From Candidatus Hodarchaeota archaeon (GTDB lineage Archaea > Asgardarchaeota > Heimdallarchaeia > Hodarchaeales > Hodarchaeaceae): 64,000 nt of DNA. This document shows positions 11,800-27,993 of this stretch, in pieces. The first letter of the stretch is position 1, and each line of letters begins with the position of its first letter. The DNA lies in NCBI GenBank assembly GCA_016840035.1, contig JAEOTC010000031.1, positions 15,917 through 79,916 on the forward strand. Direction: 5' to 3'. The position numbers and the translations under genes were made by a program. The notes beneath the pieces are model-generated. The model made no database searches. It saw only the letters and a list, made by a program, of their open reading frames with translations, and was not told the origin of the DNA.

Positions 11800-12234
11800 G
11801 TGATTCAAGTGAGCTTACGTGATCTACTCAACAAATTCGCTGTAGGATTTTCTGTTGCGGGGATATTTATTCAAACTCCGCAAGAACTATTCCCCATTGT
11901 TCAGGAAAACCCAAATTTTTACCTGGCGATCAAAAGAATTCCAATTCTTGAGGAGGGAACAATAGAGGTAAAAATAGGGGATAAAAAATATGGGCTCCTT
12001 GTAAATATATTAAATGAGCAGATGAAGATATTAATCGTCTCAAATATCAAAAATACACAAGAGATTGAATCACATTGGAAACGGTTTGCTCCAGTAATTC
12101 GTGAAAAAGTGCAAATTAACGATTTTATTCTACAAGAGAGTATTGAAACACGATTATTTAATCGTCTTGAAGATATAAGGATATCATTTGAAGATTCAAT
12201 ATTCAATTTTAAGGAGAAAACTAAAATTGGCTGA
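11800..12234 (+). CDS. hypothetical protein, possible Roadblock/longin-like fold
   Basis: 144 aa; helix, then strand VAGIFIQT, then three strands TIEVKI-KYGLLVNI-MKILIVS, then a helix. Stop overlaps the next gene. Confidence 0.6.
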   Translation: MIQVSLRDLLNKFAVGFSVAGIFIQTPQELFPIVQENPNFYLAIKRIPILEEGTIEVKIGDKKYGLLVNILNEQMKILIVSNIKNTQEIESHWKRFAPVIREKVQINDFILQESIETRLFNRLEDIRISFEDSIFNFKEKTKIG

Positions 12235-13450
12235 TCCACAACATTCAAATTCGAATCCTGAGTACATTGAATTAGCTCAAAGACTTTTAGAGCTTACCAC
12301 ATTTCTGCAAAAGAATTCAGAAGCAATTGAGGACTTAAAGAAAGAAATGGGAGAGATGAAATCAAAAACCCAAGATCTCGATCTGGAGCTTGGTAATAAA
12401 TTCAATGAGTTTAGAGATAGTCTTAATTCCGATATGAAACAGATAAATGATAAATTCGATTCACAAATTGCTGAGATTAAAGAAACTCTGGAAACACAAA
12501 AAGAACTTCTAGCTTCCGAGGTCAAAACGGTAACTGAAGTTATTGAAACCCAAGAAAACCATTTTAATGATAAGTTTTCCTCACAGAAACAGGTTGAGGA
12601 GAGATTACAGGCCTCCATCGATAATCATGAAGACAAGTTGGTAGAACTATCTGGTGGAATAAAAAACGGTATATCAGATATATCAGAACAGCTCAATGAA
12701 CGTGAAACAACTCTTAAGTCTTCTATATCTGCCTTAGGAGAGCTAGTTCGAACTCAGAACGAAACAACAACAAAAACCTCAGATAAGCTGGAAACAGATA
12801 TCTCCTCACTTAATGAACTGACTCAAGCTCATACAGAGGCGTTTAACAATGTTCGGCAAAGTCTCCTTTCTTTCAAAGATAAACTTCAAGAGATAATTAC
12901 TCTATCAAAGAAAGATCAGCAGTCCCATTTTGAAAACTTCTCACGAATGCTGGAAAGCTTTAATGAAAATATAAGAACAGAAATAACTCTTACGGCACAA
13001 AACCTTAAAGAATCCGATATTCAGATTCTCAATGAAGTAGCGGAACATTATACACGAAAAAAGGTTGGAGATGATCTTCAACAAGCTTTCACAAGCTTTA
13101 GTGACGAACTCCAACAACAAACTTCTCGTACACGGGAGGAGATTACTCAAAACCTTCAAAATTCACTAAATGAATATGAAACTATAGTAGAATCTCAATC
13201 ACAGAGTATTCAAACCTATAAGGAGGAGCTTGAACGAATCCAGAGCGAAATTCAGGCGATAATTGACCGAAAGGTGAATGAAAAATACGAGGCAGTCTTC
13301 TCACTGCTTTCAACGGTAGCATTACACGCTGAAGAACTTTCTATGCTCATAAAAACTGCAGAAATTCATTTACCAAAAGAAATTTCATCATCTGTTGAAA
13401 ATAAGGATACTCAAGGGACCAATACTGAAAATCAAGATGATGAGCATTGA
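12227..13450 (+). CDS. long coiled-coil protein
   Basis: About 400 aa of E/Q/K/L/S-rich helical sequence; AGGAG precedes TTG 12227. Confidence 0.8.
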   Translation: MADPQHSNSNPEYIELAQRLLELTTFLQKNSEAIEDLKKEMGEMKSKTQDLDLELGNKFNEFRDSLNSDMKQINDKFDSQIAEIKETLETQKELLASEVKTVTEVIETQENHFNDKFSSQKQVEERLQASIDNHEDKLVELSGGIKNGISDISEQLNERETTLKSSISALGELVRTQNETTTKTSDKLETDISSLNELTQAHTEAFNNVRQSLLSFKDKLQEIITLSKKDQQSHFENFSRMLESFNENIRTEITLTAQNLKESDIQILNEVAEHYTRKKVGDDLQQAFTSFSDELQQQTSRTREEITQNLQNSLNEYETIVESQSQSIQTYKEELERIQSEIQAIIDRKVNEKYEAVFSLLSTVALHAEELSMLIKTAEIHLPKEISSSVENKDTQGTNTENQDDEH

Positions 13451-13615
13451 ATTAGTCTTTTATTTCAAAAAACTCGAACTTAAATTAAATAATAATAGTA
13501 GAAGGCTAATTGATAAGCTTTAAATGAAATATTAGTAAACAAAATTATTGTAGAATAATAGTATAAAACTCATAATCAAATCAAAAAGAGTCTCTCTTCG
13601 GAATGGGAATTCTGG

Positions 13616-14140
13616 GTGTCACAGAACAAATCAGTAAAAGTGGTAATAGCAGGAGAAAAACGCGTAGGAAAATCCTCACTTGTACATCGTTTTATACATG
13701 AGAAATTCCCATTAAAAGATCTTTATTCCACCGTAGGATTTGATTTCACGGTGAAAAGTATTACATTTGAAGATGGAGAGATTATTGATGTCCTTCTTTT
13801 TGATTTCGGCGGAGAACCACGATTCCAGACGATATTTCCGCAGTATGCTTCTGATTGTGATGGGTTAATTTTAGCTTTTGATCCCTCCCGAGAACAGACA
13901 TTTACTGCACTTCATGAATGGATAAAGGTATATGGTAGAGAAAGCGAAAGCATCAATTTCTTAGTCTCGACGAAATCTGACCTTGGAGTTACAATTTCAC
14001 CCGTTGAAATAAACGAGTTTAGAAATCAATACAACATTGATGAATATTTTACAACGAGCGCCATCACAGGGAAAAACACCCAAGAACTCCTTCATAAGCT
14101 TGTATCACGAATTCTAGAACAGCAGAATGTAAAAGCATAA
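13616..14140 (+). CDS. Rab-like small GTPase
   Basis: GEKRVGKSS, STVGFDF, FDFGGEPRF, TKSD (G4 variant), TTSA. Confidence 0.9.
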   Translation: MSQNKSVKVVIAGEKRVGKSSLVHRFIHEKFPLKDLYSTVGFDFTVKSITFEDGEIIDVLLFDFGGEPRFQTIFPQYASDCDGLILAFDPSREQTFTALHEWIKVYGRESESINFLVSTKSDLGVTISPVEINEFRNQYNIDEYFTTSAITGKNTQELLHKLVSRILEQQNVKA

Positions 14141-14163
14141 TCATAATTCGGAATGATCAATCT

Positions 14164-14730
14164 ATGACTGATACTAAATTTCAGTTTACTCCCGATGTAT
14201 TGACAGTAAAAGTCGTTGTTGCTGGTCCTGGAGGTGTGGGAAAAACTACTCTCCTTAAACGTCTTGAAACCAATAATTATATTCCCGCTATTAGCACTGT
14301 GGGAGTGAACTTTCTTGTCTTAGACCACGAAATCGGTGAAACTATTTTAAGAATTGCATACTGGGATTATGCAGGGGAAAATCGGTTTAAATCACTTTTT
14401 CCCGGCTATTGTCAAGGATCATCGGGAGGAATACTAGCATTCGATACATCACGGATTCAAACTCTGTCAGAAATACCAGAATGGCTCAATATGATGAAGG
14501 AACATAATGATCCAAACCTTCCAATCATTTTACTTGGAAATAAGATAGACACAGTCGAGGAAAATAAGAGAAAATTGATTGCAGAGGCAGCTGCAAAATT
14601 TGTCAGAGATTATGGTTTATCTGGTTACTACTTCTGCTCTGCAAAATCTGGTGAGGGATTAAGTTCCCCATTTCAACATTTAGGGATCTTACTTGTGGAG
14701 AGAGAGAAAAGAGGAAGTATGAAGAAATAA
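14164..14730 (+). CDS. Rab-like small GTPase
   Basis: GPGGVGKTT, STVGVNF, WDYAGENRF, NKID, CSAK. Confidence 0.92.
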   Translation: MTDTKFQFTPDVLTVKVVVAGPGGVGKTTLLKRLETNNYIPAISTVGVNFLVLDHEIGETILRIAYWDYAGENRFKSLFPGYCQGSSGGILAFDTSRIQTLSEIPEWLNMMKEHNDPNLPIILLGNKIDTVEENKRKLIAEAAAKFVRDYGLSGYYFCSAKSGEGLSSPFQHLGILLVEREKRGSMKK

Positions 14731-15046: not shown

Positions 15047-18000
15047 TTGGTACATATCAAAGAAATTAGGATGACCGGTTGGAAATCATATGGACCCGGT
15101 ACTGTCCGAATGCCTCTTGCGAAGGGATTTACGGTTATTGTTGGGCCAAATGGGAGTGGAAAATCCAATTCTATTGATGCTGTTAACTTTTGTCTAGGTG
15201 CTCTCTCTAAAAAGAGTATGCGAGCAGATAAGATGGTAGGCCTCATCTATAACGGAATTGGAGGCAAAAGAAAGTCAGAAAAGGCATTTGTTGAAATTGT
15301 TTTTGATAATGCTGACTTTGCCATCCCTATAAGAGAAAAAGAAGTTATTGTAAGTCGAGAACTAAAAACCAATGGCTCAGGAACTTATAGACTGAATGGT
15401 AAAAGAACCACTCGGACTGATATTTTAGATAAACTTAGAATTGCAGGTATTGATGTCGTTAATAGTTATAATATTATTGCTCAAGGGCAAGTCGGCGAAA
15501 TTGTTGGAATGAATCCAAATGAGCGACGCCAAATGATGGAAAATCTTGCTGGCGTCGGCCAATTTGATACGAAGAAGCAATCTGCTCTATCAGAATTAGA
15601 AGAAGCAAATAAGAGAATGGATGAGCTTCAGCTCCTTGTAAATGAAGTCGCAAAGCGTGTGGAATCTCTTCGAAAGGAAAAACAAGATGCTGAAAGGTGG
15701 AGTCAACTAGACTCTGAAATTTTAAATCTTAAGGCCCTCCTAATTTCATATTCATTTCACACCAATAATCGGGCATTGGTAAAGTTTGATGAGGATATTG
15801 CATCAATCCGCAGTAATCAGGAACAATTTGTAACCGAGCGATCACAGATTGATACAAACGTAGAAGAAGTCACCGAGAAAATTCGGACCCTTGAAGATTC
15901 ATTAATTCGTGTTGAAACTTCACTAAAGGAGATCAGGACTTCCGCAGAAGAAAAGAATATTGAAAAAACAAAAGTTCAGGAAAAGGCTGAATATAATAAA
16001 AAGACAATTAAATCGAATGAGAAACGAATAAAGCAGTTAGAATCACGTTCTGAAGAAATTCAGAAGAAAATTGAAGATGATAGTAATACGAAAGAGGAAC
16101 TCTTACAGAAAAAAGACGAATTAGTCGAGCGGATAGAACAGATTCAAAATGATAGAACTTCTCTTGAAGAGGATCTTGAACTAAAAAATCAGGAATATGA
16201 CGAAATCAAGGGAGAATTTGAAGACGGAGAGAGACGTTTAAAGATTGAAAATGATAGATTAACAAAAACTCAGGTCTCCTTTGAAGTATCACAAAATATG
16301 GTTAATGCTTTTCAAAATAATGTTGATGAATATCAACGACGGCAATCAGAAGCAGAAGAACAGATTAAATCAGCTTCAGAAAGAGCTGAAGAACTTAAGA
16401 TTCAAATTGAAGAAGAAAATACTCAACAAACAGAAGCATCTGGGAAATTAGAGGAAATCGAAACTAAAAAATTGAATTTAGAAACTCAAATTGAGAATAT
16501 CGATGATCAGGTAAGAGAATTAAGTGACAAACAACTAGTTTTAAAGGCAAAAATTGAAACGATATCTTCCTTCGTTAAATCAGAAGCAGGAAAAGAGAAT
16601 CCAGCGGTATCCTATATTAATGGGAAGAAAAATGATGGCAATATTGCTGGAGTTCTTGGTGAATTCCAAAATTTGTCTGATGAAGGAATTACTCTTCCTC
16701 CAGAAGTTGGCCATCTGTCTGATGCAATAATAACTGATACCATTGAATCTAGTTTAAACTGTATAAATCTTTTAAAAGAACATTCAATAGGTGCTGCGAA
16801 TTTTATTCCTCTTGAAAAATTCAAACTTAAAAAAACTGATAATTTCTCAAATATAGTGAAGAAAGTTAGAGAACAGAATCAAGTCGTTACATCATTATCA
16901 GAAGCTGCTAATCTTTGGAAAAAACATAGTTCCACTTTATCAACCGCTGATGGTGACATTTTTTACTCGAACGGAATAATTTACGGAGGATTTCATCTAC
17001 TTTCTGCTCAAGCCTCCGTTGATTCGCTTGATTTAGAGATGGGCCAAATCACTTCTGAACTTGAGGAATATAAATCTAAGTTGAAAGAAGAAAAGGAAAA
17101 CCAGAAAAAACTTCTGGGAATAGAAAAAGTGATTATTTCCTCAATAGAGAAACTCGAAAAAAGTATTCAAGGAGCTACTGTTCAGCTAAATCAACAAGAA
17201 AGTGAAATTAAACTATATACCGAGAATCAACAGAGTATTGAGGGTGAACTTGATCCATTAAAGCAAAAGCTTGAAGAACGTTTATTGGAAAGGGATAAAC
17301 AAAAACAGGAAATGGATCACCACGAGCAGAATCTTGAAGTTATCGGGGAAGAAGTAAGAAGTATTGAAGAGAGACTAGAAGCTGCAGATACAAGACCGTT
17401 ATTAGAGAAAATGAATCAAATAGAACAAAAGTTAGGAAAAAGTCAAGGTCAGTTAAGTGGTATCGATTCAAGAATCGAAAGTCTCGAAACACAGAAAGAA
17501 GAAAGATCTGGGCGTTTAACTGAGACAAAAACTGAAGTTAACACAATCAAGGTTGAAACAGCTAATTTAGAAGGAGAAATTCAAGTCCTGCATGAACAAG
17601 TTGATCAGTTTAATTCCGATTTAGAAAAGATTCTAGAAAATGAAGAATCTCTCTCGACAGAGATAAAGGATTATAAATCCGATCTATCAACTCAAAAGAA
17701 ATACCAAGGACAATTAATCAAGGATAAGGAACGATTAAATGAAAAAATCTCGAAAGATGAGGAGAAAGTAACTGAAATCAAATTACAACGGGAACGAATA
17801 GCTGTAGAAACAGAAAAATTACAGAGTGAGGCATTGGATTCACAGATAGAAATTATGCCAGAAGATGCAGAAGAAATACAAAAAGTAAACGAGCAAAAAA
17901 TTAATTCTGAAATAAATCGAAAATCAGATGAAAAGAAACGGCTAGAACCTGTAAATATGCGTGCTTTGAAGGAATTCCAATCAGAAAATTCAAGATACAT

Positions 18001-18634
18001 AGAATTACTTGATCGACGTGACATATTAATTGAAGAACGTCAGGTTATTCTTGATTTTATCGAGGAGATTGAAACAGAGAAGTACTCCGTTTTCATGAAA
18101 GTTTTTAAATCTGTTAACAAGCATTTCGGTCAAATTTTCAATGAGCTCTCGGGTGGAGATGCAAGACTCATACTTGAAAAAGATCCTAAGAAAGGAGAAG
18201 ATATTTTTGAAGGGGGTCTTTTTATTGAAGCTCATCCCGCAGGAAAAAAGATTGCATCTTTAGAAAGTATGTCAGGTGGAGAAAAAGCTCTCACTGCATT
18301 AGCGTTTATTTTTGCCGTTCAAACAGTTGATGCTCAACCATTCTACATTTTAGACGAAATTGATGCAGCTCTTGACCCGATGAATGTACGAAGAGTAGCG
18401 AAACTATTATATCGAATGTCTAGGAGTGTTGGTAGAGGAGGAGAGGAAGAAGAGGGGAAAAAATTACGGAAAAGTGCAGCTCCAGCGGCTCAATTCCTTG
18501 TCATCAGCCACAGGGATATTTTAATGGCATGGGCTGACAGATTATATGGGTGTACAAACGTTAAAGGCCTAAGTTCTGTTTTCTCAATTCAAATGAGTGA
18601 AGATCAACAATTAGAAAGAGATCAAGCATTTTAA
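15047..18634 (+). CDS. smc: chromosome segregation protein SMC
   Basis: Walker A GPNGSGKSN, Q-loop IIAQGQV, two long coiled coils, hinge with GDIFYSNGIIYGG (Gx6Gx3GG), signature MSGGEK, Walker B/D-loop FYILDEIDAALD, QFLVISHR. Confidence 0.96.
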   Translation: MVHIKEIRMTGWKSYGPGTVRMPLAKGFTVIVGPNGSGKSNSIDAVNFCLGALSKKSMRADKMVGLIYNGIGGKRKSEKAFVEIVFDNADFAIPIREKEVIVSRELKTNGSGTYRLNGKRTTRTDILDKLRIAGIDVVNSYNIIAQGQVGEIVGMNPNERRQMMENLAGVGQFDTKKQSALSELEEANKRMDELQLLVNEVAKRVESLRKEKQDAERWSQLDSEILNLKALLISYSFHTNNRALVKFDEDIASIRSNQEQFVTERSQIDTNVEEVTEKIRTLEDSLIRVETSLKEIRTSAEEKNIEKTKVQEKAEYNKKTIKSNEKRIKQLESRSEEIQKKIEDDSNTKEELLQKKDELVERIEQIQNDRTSLEEDLELKNQEYDEIKGEFEDGERRLKIENDRLTKTQVSFEVSQNMVNAFQNNVDEYQRRQSEAEEQIKSASERAEELKIQIEEENTQQTEASGKLEEIETKKLNLETQIENIDDQVRELSDKQLVLKAKIETISSFVKSEAGKENPAVSYINGKKNDGNIAGVLGEFQNLSDEGITLPPEVGHLSDAIITDTIESSLNCINLLKEHSIGAANFIPLEKFKLKKTDNFSNIVKKVREQNQVVTSLSEAANLWKKHSSTLSTADGDIFYSNGIIYGGFHLLSAQASVDSLDLEMGQITSELEEYKSKLKEEKENQKKLLGIEKVIISSIEKLEKSIQGATVQLNQQESEIKLYTENQQSIEGELDPLKQKLEERLLERDKQKQEMDHHEQNLEVIGEEVRSIEERLEAADTRPLLEKMNQIEQKLGKSQGQLSGIDSRIESLETQKEERSGRLTETKTEVNTIKVETANLEGEIQVLHEQVDQFNSDLEKILENEESLSTEIKDYKSDLSTQKKYQGQLIKDKERLNEKISKDEEKVTEIKLQRERIAVETEKLQSEALDSQIEIMPEDAEEIQKVNEQKINSEINRKSDEKKRLEPVNMRALKEFQSENSRYIELLDRRDILIEERQVILDFIEEIETEKYSVFMKVFKSVNKHFGQIFNELSGGDARLILEKDPKKGEDIFEGGLFIEAHPAGKKIASLESMSGGEKALTALAFIFAVQTVDAQPFYILDEIDAALDPMNVRRVAKLLYRMSRSVGRGGEEEEGKKLRKSAAPAAQFLVISHRDILMAWADRLYGCTNVKGLSSVFSIQMSEDQQLERDQAF

Positions 18635-18645
18635 GCTGATTAACT

Positions 18646-19506
18646 ATGTCTGAACCTGAAAATATCCAAGAGGAAGATTCATCAGAAACTGACGATGAAT
18701 ATATCAGGTTATTCAGTCATCGTGAGCAATTTTTTCTGGAAGAACCTTATGTTTATTTAATCAATCCAGATCTTTTCCCGGAAAGAGTCGCATACGTTAA
18801 AGATTTTAAACTAAAAGAGGTATTACCTGATTTCCATAGAAAATTACTTGATCAGGGATTAGATTTCCGCATTTTAGGACAAGCAATTTACTCTGCAGCC
18901 AGAATTCATAAAAAGAAGGTCAGTCTAGCAATTCAGTATGAGAAAAAACAAGAAGAAAAAATTTCTATTAGAACAAAACGAAGAGCCTTTCAATTCAAGA
19001 TTCCTTTACCATATTATATTACTCGAGAACTACTTTCGCTTGCGGAAAGTGCAAATCCAGATGAATTTTATGCAGAACTCCTTCTAGGGCTTCAAGAAGA
19101 AGATGAAAAACTTAAAATTGAAAAAATAAAGGAAGAAAAGAGGAAACAAAAGGGAACGGGAGAGGAAAAACGAAAAAGACGAAAACTAGAAATTTCTGAC
19201 TTCGAAAACTTTGATTACGAACTAGACCTAGATCGTGTAGCGATTGAGGATATTGTGAATAGAACCTTCGAAATAATAAAAGCACTTGCTAAGCAAGATA
19301 AAAACAGTGAAGCTGAATTTACTAAAGTAGTTAGAGGGATGGAAACTAAAGAAGGATCCGATGAACAAAAACGTCTTACCAGAGCAAGAGTATTGATTTC
19401 ATTACTTTATCTATTCCGTGATGAGTCAATCACAGCTGAACAAGAATTAAATCCACCCTATGAGATATATATCAAGGTTATCGGAGAAAGAAAAATGAAA
19501 GCGTAA
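18646..19506 (+). CDS. scpA: divergent kleisin (ScpA-like)
   Basis: Starts 11 nt after smc. N-terminal LDFRILGQAIYSAARIHKKKV helix and C-terminal winged helix RARVLISLLYL...AEQELNPPYEIYI match kleisin termini. Confidence 0.78.
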   Translation: MSEPENIQEEDSSETDDEYIRLFSHREQFFLEEPYVYLINPDLFPERVAYVKDFKLKEVLPDFHRKLLDQGLDFRILGQAIYSAARIHKKKVSLAIQYEKKQEEKISIRTKRRAFQFKIPLPYYITRELLSLAESANPDEFYAELLLGLQEEDEKLKIEKIKEEKRKQKGTGEEKRKRRKLEISDFENFDYELDLDRVAIEDIVNRTFEIIKALAKQDKNSEAEFTKVVRGMETKEGSDEQKRLTRARVLISLLYLFRDESITAEQELNPPYEIYIKVIGERKMKA

Positions 19507-19510
19507 GGGT

Positions 19511-21910
19511 TTACACCCCTACTTCTGCACGAGTAATTTCTGTTGACCTAGCAAGGAAATAATCGCCTAAAACGATTTTCCCCATCAAAACAATAAATGA
19601 ATCTGCTAGACTAGCAATACCTATTGTTTCACCAGTATCTTCCTTAATTCCAATTATTACTTCTTCAGCATCGCGATCAGCAGCTAAATATCCTTCTATT
19701 CCCTCAAATTTATGAGAATCGATCTGACGAATCCGAACATTAGGTTTCTGTAGAAGTTTCTTCAGCAAGTCTAGATGCTTTTCTTTGTCTATCATTGTAA
19801 CCAAATTTACTCGTTGATGGTTCTTTGTGGCTAGAATTAGGTCAACTGGGATATCTTCAATGAAAGGAATCAATAAGGTTATTCCACCTTTCAAACGGTC
19901 AAACATACCTGCGATATACGTTAAATTAGCTTCCTTCGAGATAATAGGAGCAGTTTGAACTTCTGGATGCTTAGTAGCTGTTACCAATGAAGCAAGTTTT
20001 TCTAAAGAGAATAAATAGTTTTTCAATGCCTCTTCATTCTTCTTCGAGACTTCCTGGAACTTGGTAGTATAGTCTCCTAATTCTCTCTCGAGAGTCTCCA
20101 TTTCGGTATGAATCCCGCTTGAAATTACTTCATTAACCTCTCCCAACTTTTGTACTGTTGAATTTGACATAGAACTTATAGTGGCAGTGGTTTTTTCTTG
20201 TAATCCGCGAGTTTTTGAAATCAATCCTTCTGATGCCTTATTAACTGTGTCTATAAGCGAAGTACCATATTTCTCGTCGTAAGACTGCACTAGAGTCTTC
20301 ATTTCGGAAACTGATTGTTGAATGCTTTGTTTTAACTCATTCATTTCATTTTGAATATGTGATGATAGTTCCTGATTTTTTGCTGTAACCTCATCCCTAA
20401 AGGAATCAATAGTTGCAGTATATTGAGAAAGAGATTGATTCTGACTAGTTGAAAAATCAGTTTTGAATCGATTTAATTCATCTTTGAGTGCAGATTCATG
20501 AGGTTTCATCGTAGTTGTAAACTCTGATACTTGTTTTTGAATTTCTTTTCTCAAAGATTCAATAGTTTCTTTCACATTGTTCAGAGAGGACTCCTTAAGT
20601 GTATTAATTTGAGAATTCGAATCTGTTTCAAACTGAACATAGTGAGATTCAATATCGGTAACAGCTTTCTCATACGTGGTATTTGCATTCGTAACCAAGT
20701 CAGTTAAAGTGCCTGTTGTATCATCAATTACTTTTTGGAAGTCATTTTCCACCTGTTGCTTCAATGAGTCCGAGTAAGAACCCATAGAACTTTCCACTTG
20801 TGATTTTGCAGAGTTTATCTTTTCGTTGAGAGAATCATGAATGTTCTGAATCATCTCAGATATTTGATTTTGCGCAGTACTCAAGATTTCATTAACAGAT
20901 TCCTTAATATTTTGCGCATTATCTGTAGTTTTACTCGTGAACTGGTCACGTGAACTTTGGAAAACATTAATTGCAGCATCTTTCTTTATCTCAAGATTTT
21001 GTTTGAAATTTTCCTGATAAGCGCCCAATGAATCCTTCACAAGCTGCTTACCCTGAGAACTCGTACTACTTACTGCATTTGATATTTCAGAAGAAGTGTC
21101 TGTCACAAAAGTAGTTAGAGTCTCCTCTTGAGAATTTATTGAAGAAATTACGGTTTCACCAGAAGTTTTCATGGTCGATTGAACCACTTCAAAACCCTGA
21201 CTTAATTTTGTACCCGTTTCTGTGGATAACTGTTCAAAGGACTCCACAAGACCTGTATTTCTCTCAGTTTCTCCAGATTTTAGTGAATCCAATCCTTCTA
21301 AGTACTTAGCTTCTAGATCTTTACTAGATTCACCGTATTTATTCTGAAATTCGTCTGCTTTCTGTTCAAACGTTGTACCCATACCAGATAATAGTTCTTC
21401 ATGCTCTGATTGTTTCTGTTTAATAGCCTCTTCAATTTTTTTCTTGCTTTCCTCATTTGCTTGCTCAGTTTCAAGAACTGCTTTAGCAGTATGTTCCTCA
21501 ATATCAGTTTGTGATTGAGTTTCGAACTGATCCACAGCGGTTTGCCCACTAGTGATACTCTCTTTCATACGTTGAGATTCATCACCCATTGTAGCAAGAA
21601 TAGTTTCCAATTTTTTAGCAACTTCTTCCCCTAATTGTGAAGCAAGAGCTTTAAGTTCAGCGATTGTTGCTTCTCCAGCACTTTTCAAATCTTTAAACGG
21701 TAAGATCGCGTGATATCTTGTAGCAATACCAGGGATATCAAAAGCATAATTTTTGTTCTTTAATCCCTCCATTGCATTCTTTATTTCCGCTGAAGAGAAC
21801 TCAGTACTCTTAATCAGTTCACCTAAACTAAGTGGACCATTTGCTAATAAGATTATATAGAGTTTACTTTCCTGATCGTTTAAATCTAATGATTTGAGTC
21901 CCAGACTCAT
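19511..21910 (-). CDS. TrmB-like winged-helix protein with a very long helical/coiled-coil insert and a C-terminal alpha/beta domain
   Basis: N-terminal LDLNDQESKLYIILLANGPLSLGEL...RYHAILP is a TrmB-type wHTH; about 570 aa of amphipathic helix follow, then a ~145-aa alpha/beta domain resembling the TrmB effector-binding core. Confidence 0.75.
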   Translation of the reverse strand: MSLGLKSLDLNDQESKLYIILLANGPLSLGELIKSTEFSSAEIKNAMEGLKNKNYAFDIPGIATRYHAILPFKDLKSAGEATIAELKALASQLGEEVAKKLETILATMGDESQRMKESITSGQTAVDQFETQSQTDIEEHTAKAVLETEQANEESKKKIEEAIKQKQSEHEELLSGMGTTFEQKADEFQNKYGESSKDLEAKYLEGLDSLKSGETERNTGLVESFEQLSTETGTKLSQGFEVVQSTMKTSGETVISSINSQEETLTTFVTDTSSEISNAVSSTSSQGKQLVKDSLGAYQENFKQNLEIKKDAAINVFQSSRDQFTSKTTDNAQNIKESVNEILSTAQNQISEMIQNIHDSLNEKINSAKSQVESSMGSYSDSLKQQVENDFQKVIDDTTGTLTDLVTNANTTYEKAVTDIESHYVQFETDSNSQINTLKESSLNNVKETIESLRKEIQKQVSEFTTTMKPHESALKDELNRFKTDFSTSQNQSLSQYTATIDSFRDEVTAKNQELSSHIQNEMNELKQSIQQSVSEMKTLVQSYDEKYGTSLIDTVNKASEGLISKTRGLQEKTTATISSMSNSTVQKLGEVNEVISSGIHTEMETLERELGDYTTKFQEVSKKNEEALKNYLFSLEKLASLVTATKHPEVQTAPIISKEANLTYIAGMFDRLKGGITLLIPFIEDIPVDLILATKNHQRVNLVTMIDKEKHLDLLKKLLQKPNVRIRQIDSHKFEGIEGYLAADRDAEEVIIGIKEDTGETIGIASLADSFIVLMGKIVLGDYFLARSTEITRAEVGV

Positions 21911-22349
21911 ATAATCACCTGTTTAACATTTTTATTTCTCATTTGTGGATTGATAATTACTCCTAGAATCTGATAAACATCAAATTTTGTCACAGATGAA
22001 TAATTCTTCCCTGTTTCAAAAAGTGAAATCCTCAAATGAGGTAGTCGCTTAAAATTAACACTAAACAGATGTTATAAAGATACGCTTTCTAAGATAGAAG
22101 CAAAAAAAGACCATTATTTTGTATTAAAATATGTTCATAAACGTGAGAAGGCATTAACAGTCTAGAAATCTGCGTAAAATTTGCTGTTTCGACGTTAGGT
22201 TGTAATTTAACTGAATCTTAAATAATAATAATCAGCATTTCAAGAATTCAAGTTATTGCGTTAGTGTACCAAATAAATTTGATACTGTATCTATTGAAAA
22301 ATTATTATAAGTCTTGAAAACCACTTACAGTTTAGGGTAATCTGGTGGT

Positions 22350-22919
22350 ATGTACGTGGATTTAAAATCATTGAATGAAATGGATATCCTTGAAGCAGCA
22401 TTGTTTATTATTGATCGACCAGTTACCTATCAAGAACTGTCAGAAATTATTCAAAAAGATGAGAATGAAATAGAACGCTATATCGAAGAAATTAGAGACA
22501 TACATTTGGACAAAAATACTGCTTATCACATTGTGAATGTGGAGGATAAAGTTGTACAGCTAAAAATCAGAGATGAAGTTGCAGCTCACCTACATTGGCC
22601 ATTCATTAAGCGTAGTGATGTCCCAAGGCATCTTTTGAAGATTTTAAGTCTAATAGCGTTTAAGGAATATGTTCTCAATGAAATAGTAAGTCCAAGTAAA
22701 CTCATTCGGATTTTTGGAAAAGCAGTTTCACAGGATCTTGACGAATTACAAACCATGTCACTAATTAATGTAACGCCTAAAGGGAATAAGCGGGAAATAA
22801 CTGTTACTGAAGACTTCTTAAACCTTTTTAAGTTACCTCATGAACCTGACAAAGTCAAAATCGCAATCCAGAGAGGTCTTAAGGATTACGCTATGAGTCA
22901 ACTTCAAATGACCGACTAA
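22350..22919 (+). CDS. scpB: ScpB (kite) paralogue 1
   Basis: ILEAALFIIDRPV, LKILSLIAFKE, VTEDFLNLFKL: tandem winged-helix ScpB signatures. Confidence 0.85.
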   Translation: MYVDLKSLNEMDILEAALFIIDRPVTYQELSEIIQKDENEIERYIEEIRDIHLDKNTAYHIVNVEDKVVQLKIRDEVAAHLHWPFIKRSDVPRHLLKILSLIAFKEYVLNEIVSPSKLIRIFGKAVSQDLDELQTMSLINVTPKGNKREITVTEDFLNLFKLPHEPDKVKIAIQRGLKDYAMSQLQMTD

Positions 22920-22942
22920 GTACCCCAAATTGAGGAGAAAAT

Positions 22943-24103
22943 ATGTTTCGCTTATTTCGCAGAAGGAAGAAAGAGGATACGAAAGAACCTGTAGAAGAGA
23001 AGGTTCCAACGGAGACTGTAGTCGAGGAAAAATCAGTAATTCCTGAAGTCCCAAGCATTGAAGAGAAAGTAGAAGAAGAGCAAGTTTTTGAAACAAAAGA
23101 AACCCCTTTTGAAGATAAGTTCGCCCAATTAACGCATATTCTTCCCGAAACCCTCTTAGAAGAAGAACCAACCACACCTGAACAAAAAATTCTACCTTTT
23201 ATTCAAAATGTAATCGAACAAGGCTCTTCCTTTGCCGATTTCATGTCTCCTCAGATTATAAGCAAAGAATCAGAAGGAGAACTAAAATTAAGGGAGGAAG
23301 AATACGTTATCACAAGGAAAGAACTCCCCCCAGCTTCTCTTGAAGAACGAATTGATGGAGCTCTGTTTTCGGTCGGAAGACCGATTCATGCAGATGAGTT
23401 AATCGAAAGTTTTGAAGAAGACTCACCAACAGTCAAACGCGCAATAAGAAAGTTGAGTAGGAAAAGACAACGTACCAGTGCAATAGTAGTTGAAGAAATC
23501 TCCAAGGATAGGTGGGTAATGCAACTCAACCCAATATTCCATGAATTTTTCCAACCTTTGCTACCCGATCAATTTCTGTTGCCTGATGAAAGGAGAGTAT
23601 TAACAGAGATCGCCTATCGTCAACCAATTTCCTTAGCGTTGGTTAAGAAAATGGTCGTTGGAATGGGCCCTCTTAAGATTAATGAAATCTGTAAGAAGTT
23701 GGAAGAACAAAGTTTCATTGTATCGGAGCAAAGAGCAAGATCCTTGATTTTCACCACGACACCTAAATTTGCTAGTTCATTTGGGTTTGACAATGAAAGC
23801 CGTAGATTAAAATTACAGATGCTTTGGAGATTGAAACGGTTGATGGGTGACTTTGAAGCAGAAGAGGAGGAAGAGGGTGAGGAAGAATTACTCGAGACTC
23901 AAGCAACTACAGAAACTCAACCTGAATCCGACACAATCAAACCTCCCACGGATGGGGAACCTCATGAGCCAGAATTAGAGGAAGAACAACCTCAGGTCGT
24001 AGAAGAAGAACCCCTTACTGATAGTGTGGATGCAAATAGTACAGATCGGATGATAAAAGAAGTCTCAGAAATAAAGGCAGATATTCTTTCAGAAGAAGAG
24101 TGA
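22943..24103 (+). CDS. scpB: ScpB (kite) paralogue 2 with acidic N- and C-terminal extensions
   Basis: Core RIDGALFSVGRPI, VLTEIAYRQPIS, FTTTPKFASSFG, flanked by about 130 aa and 85 aa of E/P/T-rich sequence. Confidence 0.82.
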   Translation: MFRLFRRRKKEDTKEPVEEKVPTETVVEEKSVIPEVPSIEEKVEEEQVFETKETPFEDKFAQLTHILPETLLEEEPTTPEQKILPFIQNVIEQGSSFADFMSPQIISKESEGELKLREEEYVITRKELPPASLEERIDGALFSVGRPIHADELIESFEEDSPTVKRAIRKLSRKRQRTSAIVVEEISKDRWVMQLNPIFHEFFQPLLPDQFLLPDERRVLTEIAYRQPISLALVKKMVVGMGPLKINEICKKLEEQSFIVSEQRARSLIFTTTPKFASSFGFDNESRRLKLQMLWRLKRLMGDFEAEEEEEGEEELLETQATTETQPESDTIKPPTDGEPHEPELEEEQPQVVEEEPLTDSVDANSTDRMIKEVSEIKADILSEEE

Positions 24104-24108
24104 CACAC

Positions 24109-24633
24109 TCACATATCGATTTTGTCAATATTATCTTTTACTAGCTTAGTGTATATCTCAGTAATGATATCCCCTCCTATTTTTGCAGAACATTCATAAA
24201 AGGGGATACTAAATGATTTGGCTAAGGCAGTACCTTCTTCAGTAGTAACTTGTCTTTCATCTTCCAGATCAATTTTATTTCCAATAATCGCAATCGATTT
24301 TTCCTCTCCCTGAACACTACGATAATCATTTATCCAGTATTCCAACGAATCAAAGGTTTCCTTTCGAGTAATATCATAAACAATCAGACAACCGACTGAC
24401 CCTTCATAATAAAATTTGCGGAGTTTACCAAAATACTCCTGACCTGCGGTATCATGTAAAATGAGCTTAACTTCTTGTGTGTTGATTGTTATTACTTTAG
24501 TAGTAATATCAACTCCAATCGTTGGCATATAATTCGTAGAGAAAGCCCCTTCAGCATACCGTCTAATAAGTGATGTTTTACCTACTTGGTAAGACCCCGA
24601 AGAACAAATTTTCAGAACATATCTATCCTTCAT
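24109..24633 (-). CDS. Rab-like small GTPase
   Basis: GSYQVGKTS, YMPTIGVD, DTAGQEYF, YYEG, NKID, ECSAK. Confidence 0.93.
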   Translation of the reverse strand: MKDRYVLKICSSGSYQVGKTSLIRRYAEGAFSTNYMPTIGVDITTKVITINTQEVKLILHDTAGQEYFGKLRKFYYEGSVGCLIVYDITRKETFDSLEYWINDYRSVQGEEKSIAIIGNKIDLEDERQVTTEEGTALAKSFSIPFYECSAKIGGDIITEIYTKLVKDNIDKIDM

Positions 24634-24930: not shown

Positions 24931-25509
24931 TTGACAGATAATATAATAGATATCCGATTACACGGTAGAGGTGGACAAGGTGTCATGACTAGTAGTTACT
25001 TGATAGCAGAGGCTGCACTACTAGAAGATAAGCATGTTCACGCCTTTCCAACTTTTGGTCCGGAGCGCAGTGGCGCACCTATTGCTGCATTTGCACGAAT
25101 TTCGGACGAAAAGTTTTACATGAAGACAGAAGTCTATGAACCAGACGTAGTCGTCGTTCAAGACCCCTCACTCCTCAGTCAAATTGATGTGACGGCAGGA
25201 TTACAAGAAGGGGGGTTAGTTTTAATTAACACAAATAATCCCAATAAAGAGGATGTACAGGCTGTAAAACAAAAACGACCCGATGCAAAGTTCGCTACTG
25301 TTGATGCATCAAAAATTGCAGCAGAAGAAATTGGTTTATCTGTTACCAATACCGCAATCCTTGGTGCTCTATGTAAAGTAACTGATAATAAAATCATAAA
25401 GCTGAATGTTCTTGAAAAAGCAATAAAAAATCGTTTTAAAGGGAAAGGAGCAATTGCTGAAAAGAATATCAAAGCTATAAACCGTTCTTATGCGGAGGTT
25501 ATGATGTAA
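24931..25509 (+). CDS. porG: pyruvate/2-oxoacid:ferredoxin oxidoreductase gamma subunit
   Basis: RLHGRGGQG, FPTFGPERSGAP, NTAILGA. Confidence 0.92.
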   Translation: MTDNIIDIRLHGRGGQGVMTSSYLIAEAALLEDKHVHAFPTFGPERSGAPIAAFARISDEKFYMKTEVYEPDVVVVQDPSLLSQIDVTAGLQEGGLVLINTNNPNKEDVQAVKQKRPDAKFATVDASKIAAEEIGLSVTNTAILGALCKVTDNKIIKLNVLEKAIKNRFKGKGAIAEKNIKAINRSYAEVMM

Positions 25510-25862
25510 TGCCAGACGTATTACCTACTGATGTAAATGATGATGAATTTAAGAAATGGGTAGCAGAAAAATGGGGATACAAGAAGCTGCCAATGGCTGG
25601 CTCTACTCCGGCTGGTACAGCAAAATTCTTTCGAACAGGAGATTGGGCCGCAAAACAACCAAGATTAATCGTAGAAAATTGCACAAGCTGTTTTAAATGC
25701 TACTTCTACTGTCCTGATAGCGCAATCACAATGGTTGAAGGTGAAGATGGAAAAGCTCATCCTGAATTCGATATGTATTACTGTAAAGGATGTGGTGTTT
25801 GTGCACATGAATGTCCAGGAAGGAAAGGAGAAAAAGCAATCGTTATGGAGGATTTAAAATGA
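25509..25862 (+). CDS. porD: pyruvate/2-oxoacid:ferredoxin oxidoreductase delta subunit (2x[4Fe-4S])
   Basis: RTGDW, CTSCFKCYFYCPD, YCKGCGVCAHECP; TAATG coupling with porG. Confidence 0.92.
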   Translation: MPDVLPTDVNDDEFKKWVAEKWGYKKLPMAGSTPAGTAKFFRTGDWAAKQPRLIVENCTSCFKCYFYCPDSAITMVEGEDGKAHPEFDMYYCKGCGVCAHECPGRKGEKAIVMEDLK

Positions 25863-27034
25863 GTAAAATTGCAGTAACAGGCGATGATGCAATCGCTCAA
25901 GCAGCTAAATTGGTCAATCCTGATGTGGTAGCCGCCTACCCGATTACTCCCCAAACAATTATTGTCGAACGATTTTCTGACTTCGTCGCTGATGGAGAAG
26001 TAGACACAGAATTTGTGTGTGTTGAATCTGAGCATTCAGCCATGTCTGCTTGTATCGGCGCGAGTACAGCAGGTGGTAGAGTATTCACTTCTTCCGCAAG
26101 CGCAGGTCTAATGTTGATGTATGAGATCATACAGATCGCTTCTTCATCTCGTACTCCAATTGTCTGTGCAGTTGCAAACAGAGCAATTTCTGGTCCCATT
26201 AACATTCACGGAGAACAGACCGATCAACTTCTGTTTAGAGACAGTGGATGGATTAGCCAATTTGCTGAAACAAACCAAGAAGCTTACGATCAAACAATTA
26301 TGGCCTTCAAAATCGGTGAACACCCAGAAGTTCTCCTTCCCGTTGCTGTAGGAATTGATGGATTCATTCTTTCCCACGCAATTGAAGGGATTGAACCCGT
26401 AACGAAAGATTCAGTTTATAATTTCCTTGGAGGAGAAAGAAAATCCACTCTTCGCTTGGATCCCGACAATCCAGTGAGTATAGGATTATTACATCTTCAG
26501 GATTATTATATGGAAGCACGAGCTCAAGTCCGAGATGCCCAGCAGCGCTCAAAGCAAGTCATTATTGATACATTTAACGAATGGAAAAACCTCACTGGCC
26601 GTCAATACAACCCAGTTGAAAGTTACAAAATGGATGATGCAGAATATGCATTCGTTACAATGGGAAGTGGAGCTGGAAATGCTCGAACTGCCATTGACGA
26701 GTTACGTGCCAAAGGTGAAAAGGTTGGACTCATCAAAGTAAGAGTATACCGACCTTGGTTTGGAGAAGAATTTTCAAATTTGACCAAAAACGTGAAAGGT
26801 GTAATTACAGTTGAACGGGCACATTCATTCGGTAGCCCTGGAGGTATTTTAGGACAAGATGTCAAATCTACCTTATTTGATGCGAAACAAACCCCCTATG
26901 TCGCAGAATATTGTTATGGTCTAGGTGGTCGTGACTGTTTAGTCAAAGAATGGGTAGAAATTTACAATCGGTCAAAACAGAGTTTCAGCGAAGGTAAGAG
27001 CCTTCCATATTTCTGGTGGGGTGTTCGAGAATAG
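25859..27034 (+). CDS. porA: pyruvate/2-oxoacid:ferredoxin oxidoreductase alpha subunit
   Basis: AAYPITPQT, VESEHSAMS, DGFILSH, GLGGRD; GGAGG precedes ATG 25859, ATGA overlap with porD. Confidence 0.93.
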   Translation: MSKIAVTGDDAIAQAAKLVNPDVVAAYPITPQTIIVERFSDFVADGEVDTEFVCVESEHSAMSACIGASTAGGRVFTSSASAGLMLMYEIIQIASSSRTPIVCAVANRAISGPINIHGEQTDQLLFRDSGWISQFAETNQEAYDQTIMAFKIGEHPEVLLPVAVGIDGFILSHAIEGIEPVTKDSVYNFLGGERKSTLRLDPDNPVSIGLLHLQDYYMEARAQVRDAQQRSKQVIIDTFNEWKNLTGRQYNPVESYKMDDAEYAFVTMGSGAGNARTAIDELRAKGEKVGLIKVRVYRPWFGEEFSNLTKNVKGVITVERAHSFGSPGGILGQDVKSTLFDAKQTPYVAEYCYGLGGRDCLVKEWVEIYNRSKQSFSEGKSLPYFWWGVRE

Positions 27035-27045
27035 GAGGAATAATC

Positions 27046-27993
27046 ATGCCTACACTAAAAGATTATGCAAAAAAAGAAGTTACGTTTTCTGGTGGACATC
27101 GATTATGTGCTGGTTGTGCAGCTGGATCCATGGCACGACAGGTTACCATGGCATTTGACAAACCAACAGTAATTTGTAATGCCACTGGTTGCTTGGAAGT
27201 AGCAAGCACAATTTATCCGTTTACCGCATGGGAAGTCCCCTGGTTACATGTTGCATTTGAAAACACATCTGCTGTCGCTAGTGGTGTTGAAGCAGCATAT
27301 AAAGCAATGCGTCGCAAACATATGATTAAAGATGAGCATATTGATATCATCGCCTTTGGTGGTGATGGTGGGACTTTTGATATAGGACTACAATCACTTT
27401 CTGGTGCATTGGAAAGAGGACATGACTTTCTCTACATCTGTTATGACAATGGAGCCTATATGAATACTGGTATTCAACGATCAGGTGGTACTCCCTTCAC
27501 TGCAAGCACAACCACTTCCCCTGCAGGTACCGTTGTACCAGGTAAAGGTCAATTCAAAAAACCTCTTATGGACATTGTGGTTGCTCATAGAATTCCCTTT
27601 GTAGCAACAGCTGTTCCTGCAGAACCGAAAGATTTGATTGAAAAGGTCAGACAGGGATTAGATGTCGAAGGCCCGGCATTTATTCATGTAGATGCCTCGT
27701 GCACACGTGGACAACGATTTGATCCATCTCTTTCCATCGAAATCACTCGATTAGCGGTCCAGACATGTATTCATCCTCTGTATCGTGTAGTAAATGGAGA
27801 ATACACAATGGATCGGCCTAGTCTTCGTATTGCAAATGATCCAAGTAAGAAAAAATCTATTGAGGAATATCTTAAGTCTCAAGGAAGATTTAGACATCTG
27901 TATAAACCTGAAAGACAAGATGATCTTATTAGGATGTTTCAAGAGGACATTGACAAGCGATGGGAAGAAATTAGAACCAAATGTGGGGTATAA
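27046..27993 (+). CDS. porB: pyruvate/2-oxoacid:ferredoxin oxidoreductase beta subunit (TPP-binding)
   Basis: GHRLCAGC, TGCLEV, GGDGGTFDIG, DNGAYMNTGIQRS; GGAGG precedes ATG 27046. Confidence 0.93.
   Translation: MPTLKDYAKKEVTFSGGHRLCAGCAAGSMARQVTMAFDKPTVICNATGCLEVASTIYPFTAWEVPWLHVAFENTSAVASGVEAAYKAMRRKHMIKDEHIDIIAFGGDGGTFDIGLQSLSGALERGHDFLYICYDNGAYMNTGIQRSGGTPFTASTTTSPAGTVVPGKGQFKKPLMDIVVAHRIPFVATAVPAEPKDLIEKVRQGLDVEGPAFIHVDASCTRGQRFDPSLSIEITRLAVQTCIHPLYRVVNGEYTMDRPSLRIANDPSKKKSIEEYLKSQGRFRHLYKPERQDDLIRMFQEDIDKRWEEIRTKCGV

Follow-up and report, generated by a model that had tools for sequence, protein, structure and literature searches.

A TrmB-family protein with a long hendecad stalk, encoded between scpA and scpB in a Hodarchaeales archaeon

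The window analyzed here is a 64,000-nt stretch of Candidatus Hodarchaeota archaeon DNA, and at 19511-21910 on the minus strand it carries an ORF with an ATG start that encodes a TrmB-family rod protein of 799 aa (plus stop), given the working name ROD799. The genes on both sides are read from the plus strand. Upstream in window coordinates, smc (15047-18634) encodes a protein of 1195 aa with heptad-type arms and an SMC_N match of 143 bits, and it is followed by a divergent scpA (kleisin) candidate of 286 aa (18646-19506). A profile search of the 286-aa product gave no Pfam match; the candidate was named ScpA because of its position and its weak profile matches (E about 0.5) to the C-terminal winged-helix domains of ScpA (5xg3_C and 4i99_C), and it sits between smc and scpB1 in sister family f2. 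As this ORF ends at 19506, the stop codons of scpA and ROD799 are 4 nt apart. On the other side lie scpB1 (22350-22919; 189 aa, PF04079 at 60.7 bits) and scpB2 (22943-24103; 386 aa, extended at both termini by acidic segments, PF04079 at 62.1 bits), and the scpB1 start at 22350 leaves a divergent intergenic region of 439 nt (21911-22349). The opposite strand and both distances agree exactly with the preliminary description of this DNA, and the ORF and its architecture as first observed are confirmed. Ras-family GTPase genes flank the ROD799 locus, and in two species such genes also lie beside its paralogue, ROD764. The window as a whole gave no hits in Rfam and tRNA scans.

The two ends of ROD799 are domains of the TrmB family. 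Residues 1-71 (21698-21910, minus strand) are a TrmB-type winged helix-turn-helix (wHTH): Pfam TrmB (PF01978) matches residues 5-69 with 34.5 bits, which passes the gathering cut-off of 25.6; the only sequence match of the N-terminus in the PDB is TrmBL2 (E 0.003); and structure comparison gives a wHTH fold match with Z 10-11 and an rmsd of 1.5-2.5 Å. At the other end, residues 645-799 (19514-19978, minus strand) are a PLD-like domain of the TrmB/TrmBL2 type. By superposing residues 648-795 on residues 105-244 of TrmB (3qph_A), a Z score of 15.2 and an rmsd of 3.1 Å over 134 aligned residues were obtained; similarly, superposition on residues 123-264 of TrmBL2 (5bpd_C) gave a Z score of 14.2 and an rmsd of 2.6 Å over 130 residues. 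The last ~150 aa, an alpha/beta domain in the preliminary description, are thus identified, and the PLD-like domain stands after a linker helix, as in TrmB and TrmBL2. The anatomy proposed at the outset (wHTH, very long 11-residue-periodic helix, alpha/beta domain) and the TrmB-family membership both hold; among proteins of solved structure, TrmBL2 is the nearest relative. Neither the catalytic motif HxK(x)4D nor HxK occurs in residues 645-799, and 0 of 34 sequences of the genus carry HxK(x)4D; an active enzyme of the phospholipase D superfamily is therefore rejected.

Known members of the TrmB family are regulators and chromatin proteins with a length of 250-350 residues, and comparison with the two best-characterized types shows where ROD799 departs from them. 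With TrmB, the sugar-sensing regulator of Pyrococcus furiosus (3qph, 2f5t), it shares the PF01978 wHTH and the PLD-like N-subdomain of the effector domain (Z 15.2). However, residue 799 of ROD799 aligns with residue 244 of TrmB, so the C-terminal sugar-binding barrel (about 245-338 in TrmB) is absent, and the stalk constitutes a giant insertion. The protein is therefore not TrmB sensu stricto; PF11495 likewise gave no match in the Pfam search. With TrmBL2, the chromatin protein and global repressor of Thermococcales (5box, 5bpd, 5bqt), the order of wHTH, linker helix and PLD-like domain is shared, and both proteins lack the sugar-binding barrel. TrmBL2, on the other hand, has 264 aa and a linker helix of ~55 residues, whereas the linker of ROD799 is a hendecad stalk of ~570 residues. 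The TrmBL2 equivalog model NF041141 (NCBIfam) reaches 14 bits against a cut-off of 530, over the wHTH only, and this assignment was also rejected.

The DNA-contact surface also differs. In the recognition helix, APRTYDVLRSL of TrmBL2 aligns with SAEIKNAMEGL of ROD799, and both arginine positions carry glutamate. This implies that DNA binding by the wHTH, which is assumed, may be weak or lost. The recognition helix is non-basic in this genus, the net charge of the wHTH is -1 in ROD799 and -2.7 on average in the genus, and the whole protein has a pI of 4.8 and a net charge of -38. Winged helices act as protein-binding modules in kleisins, kites and ESCRT-II. ROD799 could, although this is unlikely, serve as a scaffold or cytoskeletal protein without binding DNA; its acidic wHTH would then bind protein and its stalk would space a cytoplasmic assembly, possibly one linked to small GTPases. 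The non-basic helix, the negative wHTH, the low pI of the whole protein and the Ras-family GTPase genes beside the ROD799 locus and beside ROD764 in two species fit such a role. On the other hand, K16 and, in the wing, R65 are invariant, the wHTH retains its TrmB signature, K/R residues are retained in the recognition helix of the f7 homologues, and acidity is common to all neighboring proteins, including SMC (pI 5.05). Asgard genomes abound in small GTPase genes, so their adjacency to ROD799 may be due to chance.

Between the end domains runs a stalk of ~570 aa that contains a single proline, P470. Its hydrophobicity power at a period of 3.675 is 489 (residues 76-640), compared to a maximum of 68 in 500 shuffles, and the hendecad (11/3) phase is continuous over about 51 hendecads, in line with the 11-residue-like periodicity suspected earlier. 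A period of 3.62-3.68 is likewise found in 12 family members, while the arms of the neighboring SMC protein peak at 3.5. The helix presents a narrow core stripe of L/I/V/F (within about +/-50 degrees) that is flanked by K/R, with D/E on the back. Amphipathic helical repeats of 11 residues are also found in apolipoproteins A-I, A-IV and E, in perilipin-4 and in the type I antifreeze protein 'Maxi' (4ke2), and Maxi is an antiparallel hairpin of such repeats, like the predicted ROD799 stalk; this likeness is one of periodicity and composition, and neither common descent nor lipid or ice binding is implied. The N-arm (residues 72-355; 20846-21697, minus strand) contains a conserved irregular zone at ~214-251 (E214, R217, G239, G251), and the C-arm (residues 356-644; 19979-20845, minus strand) contains another at ~464-497 (F464, P470, F482, F497), which mirrors the first about residue 356. 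BLASTP of one arm against the other gave weak matches only (best E 2e-4), at several different offsets, which suggests repeat-like composition rather than a clean duplication, and internal duplication of the arms was rejected for want of a single offset. Weak NCBIfam matches to ZorA (27 bits against a cut-off of 190) are taken to reflect coiled-coil composition rather than a defense system.

It is most likely, and indeed fairly probable, that the stalk folds back at residues about 354-363 (20822-20851, minus strand) to form an intramolecular antiparallel coiled coil. In the full-length single-chain AF2 model, the helix breaks at 222-227, 354-357 and 486-489, symmetrically about residue 356, and residues 70-640 align with a chemoreceptor hairpin in structure comparison. 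A separate AF2 model of residues 225-487 (pLDDT 89.2) consists of two helices joined at 354-357, and its best structural matches are all antiparallel hairpins, namely the Smc arm 5xg2_A (237/237 aligned), chemoreceptors and 4ke2, an antifreeze protein built of 11-residue repeats (rmsd of 1.9 Å over 196 residues). Run on a single chain, AF2 is known to predict folded-back forms even for coiled coils that are parallel homodimers, so both models are biased towards the hairpin. The same turn is marked by the alignment: indels within the rod among the 34 genus sequences are located solely at about residue 363, with 7 additional residues after position 363 in the two most divergent members, and the f7 homologues carry 15 additional residues at about the same position. 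The smoothed conservation profile is mirror symmetric with its best center at 356.5 (r 0.72). This signal is mostly of low frequency and is lost after detrending over 55-77 residues, when the center moves to 408 with a z of about 2.3, so the fine-scale mirror signal is not significant; a replicate in a second genus, g9 (Neff 6.4), was not significant either. The highest-scoring MI-APC anti-diagonals are centered at 350, 355.5 and 361; as the best z of about 3 equals the chance expectation for the maximum of about 440 tests, only their clustering is suggestive. Finally, a fold test of one arm against the other returned an ipSAE of 0.38 against 0.00 for the best control, with contact agreement between runs of at least 67% and partner pLDDT of at least 72. 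Of solved complexes, 58 of 80 attain the mark for this verdict of 'weak support', as do 2 of 110 mismatched pairs; scores of 0.60 or below were seen in 7 of those 80 complexes and in both mismatches.

The preliminary description had pictured a rod-like factor. The corresponding rival topology is a homodimer whose parallel helices form a coiled coil of ~85 nm, which would carry both wHTH domains at one tip and both PLD-like domains at the opposite tip. TrmB and TrmBL2 do dimerize through the helix that follows the wHTH, as established by structures 3qph and 5box, the hendecad phase runs through the proposed apex without a break, residues 354-363 contain no Gly or Pro, and the bias of single-chain AF2 applies here as well. 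Set against these points, the AF2 helix breaks, the chemoreceptor and Smc-arm matches, the indel site at ~363, the mirrored conservation, the anti-diagonals and the arm-against-arm fold test make the parallel rod distinctly unlikely, and a folded-back hairpin of ~42 nm is the more likely form.

If the hairpin is correct, the outline of ROD799 resembles that of SMC, Rad50 and MukB, in which terminal domains form a head on a long antiparallel coiled coil with a mid-arm irregular zone, and the stalk model finds some of its best structural matches in fragments of Smc arms. However, ROD799 has no ATPase head, hinge domain or sequence relationship to these proteins, and its hendecad period is 3.67 rather than the heptad 3.5. 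An SMC-like protein was rejected, as an ABC-type ATPase head is lacking and the ends are a wHTH and a PLD-like domain; the Pfam search gave no SMC_N or AAA match. A kleisin or kite subunit of SMC-ScpAB was rejected as well, because the Pfam search gave no ScpA or ScpB family match, linkage is limited to one genus, and the rod protein occurs in lineages without a ScpB or SMC match.

The distribution of the family bears directly on this point. Relatives of ROD799 are present in 110 of the 161 Asgard genomes sampled, with lengths from about 750 to about 2100 aa that are constant within a genus. In the ROD799 genus, the length is 799 aa in 34 sequences without rod indels, down to 36% identity, the site at about residue 363 excepted; in a second genus, it is 747 aa in 21 genomes, down to 51% identity; and in a third genus, it is 1794-1796 aa. 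Nine Asgard families have the rod protein and no ScpB match, and families f3, f5 and f6 have it and no SMC match. Within the ROD799 genus, every genome in which scpA and scpB1 were assembled on a single contig has the rod gene between them. In sister family f2, the smc-scpA-scpB1-scpB2 operon is contiguous and the rod homologue is on another contig; in f7 and in other Asgard classes, the rod gene is on other contigs or 29-350 kb from scpB, and orthologues elsewhere have unrelated neighbor genes. Adjacency to the SMC/ScpAB cluster is confined to one Hodarchaeales genus. The rod family is ancient and spread across Asgard archaea, and its position at the smc locus is a secondary insertion in that genus; cooperation with SMC would therefore be at most a lineage-specific or general-chromatin relationship.

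The preliminary description had regarded ROD799 as a possible SMC accessory, and synteny across Asgard genomes leaves that reading weak, since the closest homologues outside the genus are unlinked to smc or scpB. In Thermococcus kodakarensis, TrmBL2 stalls Smc-ScpAB and forms a domain boundary (PMC11840125), so a link to SMC is still worth testing. ROD799 might, at a low probability, be an SMC-linked factor in this genus, acting as a TrmBL2-like roadblock, positioning factor or loader with a stalk on the scale of SMC arms. Such a role is consistent with the TrmBL2-like head, with the place of the gene in all genus genomes where scpA and scpB1 share a contig, with the scpA, ROD, scpB1-scpB2 block that stays intact in species L043 and L044 despite relocation of smc, and with a stalk of ~42 nm compared to SMC arms of ~49 nm, as estimated from residue counts. 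On the other hand, the whole 20-kb neighborhood is syntenic within the genus, so adjacency to scpA and scpB carries little weight; the uninterrupted operon in f2, the lack of adjacency in f7 and every other Asgard class listed, and the persistence of the rod family where ScpB or SMC matches are missing also speak against it; and, since its gene is read from the other strand, ROD799 is not transcribed together with the smc/scp operon. In its most specific form, which is quite improbable, the protein would be an Asgard counterpart of the TrmBL2 roadblock, whose DNA-bound head and ~42-nm acidic stalk would stall, position or gate loop-extruding Smc-ScpAB. In this reading, the stalk would fit the dimensions of the SMC arm or lumen, and ScpB1 and ScpB2 would form a heterodimeric kite. 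If true, the archaeal lineage that stands closest to eukaryotes would possess a boundary element comparable to CTCF. Even if it applies to the Hodarchaeales genus, this role cannot be the only one of the rod family.

It is very unlikely that ROD799 is a TrmB-type local transcription factor of itself and the divergent scpB1-scpB2 pair, with the stalk as an accessory. The 439-nt divergent promoter region is a typical regulator-target layout, and it contains a 21-nt imperfect palindrome, TTATAAAGATACGCTTTCTAA (22072-22092), common only to the four closest species. However, no palindrome or 10-mer is conserved in more distant species of the genus beyond shuffled controls, and an operator in 21911-22349 was rejected, as palindromes differ by species and the sharing of 10-mers with nine more distant species reaches a maximum of 6, barely above the 4 of shuffled sequences. 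The intergenic region ranges in length from 154 to 511 nt, with two ORFs inserted there in one species; moreover, orthologues elsewhere have unrelated neighbors, and the sugar-binding subdomain is missing. Least probable is that ROD799 binds lipids or membranes as an amphipathic repeat protein akin to apolipoproteins or perilipins, perhaps as a DNA-membrane tether. Pfam Apolipoprotein (PF01442) scores 77.8 bits over three stretches, the family profile matches insect perilipin-4, and basic residues at the polar/non-polar interface with acidic ones on the back recall class A helices. However, 77.8 bits does not reach the gathering cut-off of 90, the narrow hydrophobic stripe (about 100 degrees) is like a coiled-coil core in its L/I/V/F content, the net charge is -38, the models show a confident helix-helix hairpin, and the protein lacks a transmembrane segment, with a maximum 19-residue hydropathy mean of 1.91, located in the PLD-like domain.

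Based on the results presented above, the best explanation of the whole, offered tentatively, is that ROD799 is a stalked protein of the TrmB family with a structural role, as a nucleoid-associated protein or a scaffold, and not a conventional sugar-sensing regulator. The short helix that links the wHTH and the PLD-like domain of TrmB and TrmBL2 would have been expanded to a stalk of ~570 residues, and this continuous hendecad helix would fold back at ~354-363 into a two-helix antiparallel coiled coil with ~284 residues per arm, about 42 nm long, with a conserved irregular 'joint' roughly midway along it. Because the fold-back would return the chain to the base of the stalk, the wHTH and the PLD-like domain would join there as a TrmBL2-like head. 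In this working model, the head, probably dimeric as in TrmB and TrmBL2, would sit on DNA or on a partner, and the strongly acidic stalk (-38), which ends in a moderately conserved tip, would extend outwards from the head and act as a rigid spacer, a barrier or an arm for bridging. Of the preliminary interpretation as a whole, the anatomy and the TrmB family thus remain, the SMC accessory is improbable, and the rod is more likely a folded-back hairpin.

A literature search found no description of a TrmBL2-headed long-stalk protein family. A TrmBL2-like head on a long, genus-fixed coiled-coil stalk, found across Asgard archaea, is a previously undescribed architecture, and it may be likened to an SMC or Rad50 arm minus the ATPase. 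Asgard chromatin and chromosome mechanics are relevant to the origins of eukaryotes. Given this relevance and the action of TrmBL2 as an SMC roadblock (PMC11840125), the rod family is a testable candidate for a structural nucleoid organizer in uncultured Asgard archaea.

The gene of the rod protein (ROD799; window 19511-21910, minus strand) starts with ATG and runs for 799 open codons. Its stop codon lies 4 nt from that of an upstream plus-strand ORF of 286 aa (18646-19506), and a 439-nt intergenic gap separates it from scpB1 (plus strand, start 22350, 189 aa), followed by scpB2 (plus strand, end 24103, 386 aa); both intervals are exactly those of the preliminary description. Pfam places the latter two products in the ScpB family and a neighbouring 1195-aa protein in the SMC family. 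The 286-aa protein has zero Pfam matches, the ScpA family included. When its profile (six sequences) was compared with the PDB, the top two matches were to ScpA of B. subtilis and of P. furiosus, in both cases to the C-terminal winged-helix domain; these matches are weak (E about 0.5) yet fall in the expected region of the protein. In the sister family of the class Heimdallarchaeia (f2 of f1-f7), its counterpart sits between smc and scpB1. The protein is 73-93% identical within the genus and carries a basic KRKRRK patch, and we accept it as a putative divergent ScpA and kleisin candidate.

The two ends of ROD799 resemble those of TrmBL2. Residues 5-69 match the Pfam TrmB winged helix (34.5 bits; cut-off 25.6), and in a PDB sequence search residues 1-110 matched TrmBL2 only (E 0.003). 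In the full-length AF2 model (pLDDT 70.6), residues 1-70 form a wHTH and residues 653-799 an alpha/beta domain. Foldseek ranked TrmBL2 top, then TrmB and PLD-fold proteins; VIA-align superposed the C-terminal domain on TrmB residues 105-244 (Z 15.2, rmsd 3.1 Å, 134 residues) and TrmBL2 residues 123-264 (Z 14.2, rmsd 2.6 Å, 130 residues). Since ROD799 stops where the sugar-binding barrel of TrmB would start, it has the same set of domains as TrmBL2. The HxK(x)4D motif is absent from ROD799. In the recognition helix, APRTYDVLRSL of TrmBL2 corresponds to SAEIKNAMEGL, both Arg being replaced by Glu, and the wHTH is acidic (average net charge -2.7 in the genus); R65 in the wing and K16 do not vary in the genus. 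For these reasons DNA binding by the predicted wHTH is graded no higher than plausible.

The stalk between these domains (residues 76-640) is rich in S/E/T/K/Q, with one Pro and neither Cys nor Trp; its net charge is -38, and the pI of the whole protein is 4.8. A single peak, very sharp, stands out in its hydrophobicity spectrum at 3.675 residues; the power there is 489, against a mean of 34 and a maximum of 68 in 500 shuffles. Sliding windows revealed a smooth phase drift with zero jumps, so that about 51 hendecads share one register. The anatomy proposed earlier (wHTH, very long 11-residue-periodic helix, alpha/beta domain) is therefore upheld by the Pfam score, the periodicity and the structural matches at Z 14-15. 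The period peak lies at 3.62-3.68 in 12 of 12 family members examined (741-1478 aa) and at 3.5, the classical heptad period, in the adjacent SMC arms. In 11-residue rows, hydrophobic residues occupy positions 4, 7/8 and 11; on the helical wheel, 67% of I/L/V/M/F/Y/W deviate by no more than 50 degrees to either side from the hydrophobic moment, the flanks being enriched in K/R and the back in D/E. This narrow, strongly hydrophobic stripe looks like a coiled-coil core. Pfam Apolipoprotein A1/A4/E matches the middle of ROD799 below threshold (77.8 bits; cut-off 90); a face that binds lipid would be broader than this stripe.

The AF2 model divides the stalk into long helices (72-221, 228-353, 358-485 and 490-644) with breaks symmetric around residue 356, and its residues 70-640 superpose on a chemoreceptor hairpin. 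Modelled alone (18 sequences), fragment 225-487 formed two helices joined at 354-357 (pLDDT 89.2). Its top structural matches, used to read topology and not homology, are antiparallel two-helix coiled coils; it aligns with a Pyrococcus Smc arm fragment over 237 of 237 residues, and also matches chemoreceptors and the 11-residue-repeat antifreeze 'Maxi' (rmsd 1.9 Å over 196 residues). Single-chain AF2 is biased toward hairpins; four further signals are independent of it. Firstly, the only rod indel among 34 distinct genus sequences (36-100% identity) is +7 residues after 363, in the two most divergent, and f7 homologues carry +15 residues at the same position. Secondly, the conservation profile (11-residue smoothing) has its best mirror symmetry at 356.5 (r 0.72; mean -0.02, sd 0.27 over all centres tested), a signal that is largely low-frequency and whose replicate in a second genus was not significant. 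Thirdly, the highest MI-APC anti-diagonals are centred at 350, 355.5 and 361, half a hendecad apart, and no comparable cluster was seen among parallel diagonals. Finally, the conserved irregular residues E214, R217, G239 and G251 of the N-arm mirror F464, P470, F482 and F497 of the C-arm. Neither Gly nor Pro was found at the predicted apex. When arms 72-355 and 356-644 were folded together, the ipSAE was 0.38 (best control 0.00; contact agreement at least 67% between runs, partner pLDDT at least 72), which is rated 'weak support'. Of 80 solved complexes, 58 attain this mark, as do 2 of 110 mismatched pairs; seven of those 80 complexes and both mismatches lie at 0.60 or below. Taking the AF2 models, the AF2-independent signals and the arm-arm test together, we consider it quite likely that the stalk is an antiparallel hairpin. 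Folding back would give a stalk of ~42 nm (about 284 x 0.148 nm) and would bring the wHTH and PLD-like domain together, as in TrmBL2.

Close homologues form 24 clusters, nearly all exactly 799 aa, under the record names Candidatus Hodarchaeota, Heimdallarchaeota B3_Heim and Hodarchaeum mangrovi. Relatives occur in 82 of 83 genomes of the class and in 110 of 161 genomes (44 of 52 genera) of the Asgard sample, with open frames of about 750 to 2092 aa, each with wHTH, rod and PLD-like end. The members of the second genus are 747 aa (21 genomes, two with 744 aa; to 51% identity) with zero rod indels; the indels of the 744-aa pair lie in the C-domain. A third genus has 1794-1796 aa. In contrast, within the source genus SMC (1191-1202 aa) and ScpB2 (374-430 aa) are length-variable; SMC is better conserved in sequence than ROD799, yet its length varies. 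The source genome encodes two further, more divergent paralogues (764 and 1393 aa), and all out-group members tested are nearest to the 799-aa protein. The rod protein is a real, conserved TrmB/TrmBL2-family variant with an SMC-arm-like stalk, without description in the literature searched.

Several other features of the neighbourhood were recorded. The region immediately upstream of smc (12188-14730) encodes two Ras-family GTPases and a coiled-coil protein of 420 aa, which has a period of 3.585 and an apolipoprotein match below threshold; scpB2 is directly followed by a third gene for a Ras-like GTPase (24109-24633), and the 764-aa paralogue adjoins a Ras-like GTPase gene in two species (L060:7415-7972; L067:6018-6569). 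A four-gene 2-oxoacid:ferredoxin oxidoreductase cluster (24931-27993; POR gamma, ferredoxin-like delta, alpha, beta) keeps its order throughout the genus. An imperfect palindrome, TTATAAAGATACGCTTTCTAA (22072-22092), is common to the four closest species, and a perfect one, GATAC-T-GTATC (22281-22291), lies ~60 nt 5' of the scpB1 start; both lack genus-wide conservation.

ScpB is doubled to a conserved pair in f1 and f2 (window 22350-24103; L063, L064): ScpB1 is about 189 aa long, and ScpB2, which bears acidic extensions, about 310-430 aa. Each copy is divergent, scoring 58-91 bits; a single ScpB of 100-130 bits is the usual state elsewhere among Asgard genomes. The pairing suggests a kite that is heterodimeric, speculatively recalling eukaryotic Nse1/Nse3. 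In the genome bin of the window, an 8.6-kb contig (G000:C70, L062:1627-8304) carries a second operon of smc (1472 aa), scpA-like (375 aa) and scpB (374 aa) genes; at 114-116 bits, its ScpB is comparable to the one canonical copy in other Asgard archaea, against 60-64 bits for the window's pair. Because no other genome of the genus has this operon, either the contig is a contaminant or the operon is an additional SMC system. Some bins, G030 and G051 among them, hold surplus SMC, ScpB or rod-protein fragments typical of another lineage (in G030, of f4, for instance, part of a ROD799 that is 63% identical and an SMC that is 72% identical) and are probably mixed.

Within the genus, the order scpA, ROD799 (opposite strand), scpB1, scpB2 is kept wherever the genes are assembled together, as is the entire 20-kb neighbourhood. 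In two divergent species smc is relocated and the scpA-ROD799-scpB block retained, with two ORFs between ROD799 and scpB1 in one of them. Across the Asgard genomes sampled, the linkage proved restricted to this one genus. In f2, smc-scpA-scpB1-scpB2 is contiguous on a single strand, and the rod homologues (811 and 817 aa) lie on other contigs among unrelated neighbours; the f7 homologue adjoins an ABC ATPase and a PspC-domain gene, with SMC and ScpB on other contigs. In other Asgard classes, members are off the scpB contig or 29-350 kb from scpB. SMC and ScpB were found in every genome of f1, f2 and f7. With the window's SMC as query (E <= 1e-20), SMC matched in 0 of 16 genomes of f3, f5 and f6 and, as fragments only, in 4 of 31 of f4; with the queries used, ScpB gave no match in f3, f5 and f6 or in the majority of f4 genomes, and the f3-f6 genomes without matches include some 92-95% complete. 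The idea of an SMC accessory is consequently unsupported as a general property, given the intact f2 operon with the rod homologue elsewhere and the absence of ScpB matches in nine families with the rod protein. From the lack of linkage outside the genus and the persistence in families without ScpB or SMC matches, the ancestral function is judged to be independent of Smc-ScpAB, and the linkage to be a genus-level insertion. The SMC idea nevertheless stays alive, since Smc-ScpAB is stalled by TrmBL2 in T. kodakarensis, where TrmBL2 also gives rise to the dif boundary (PMC11840125).
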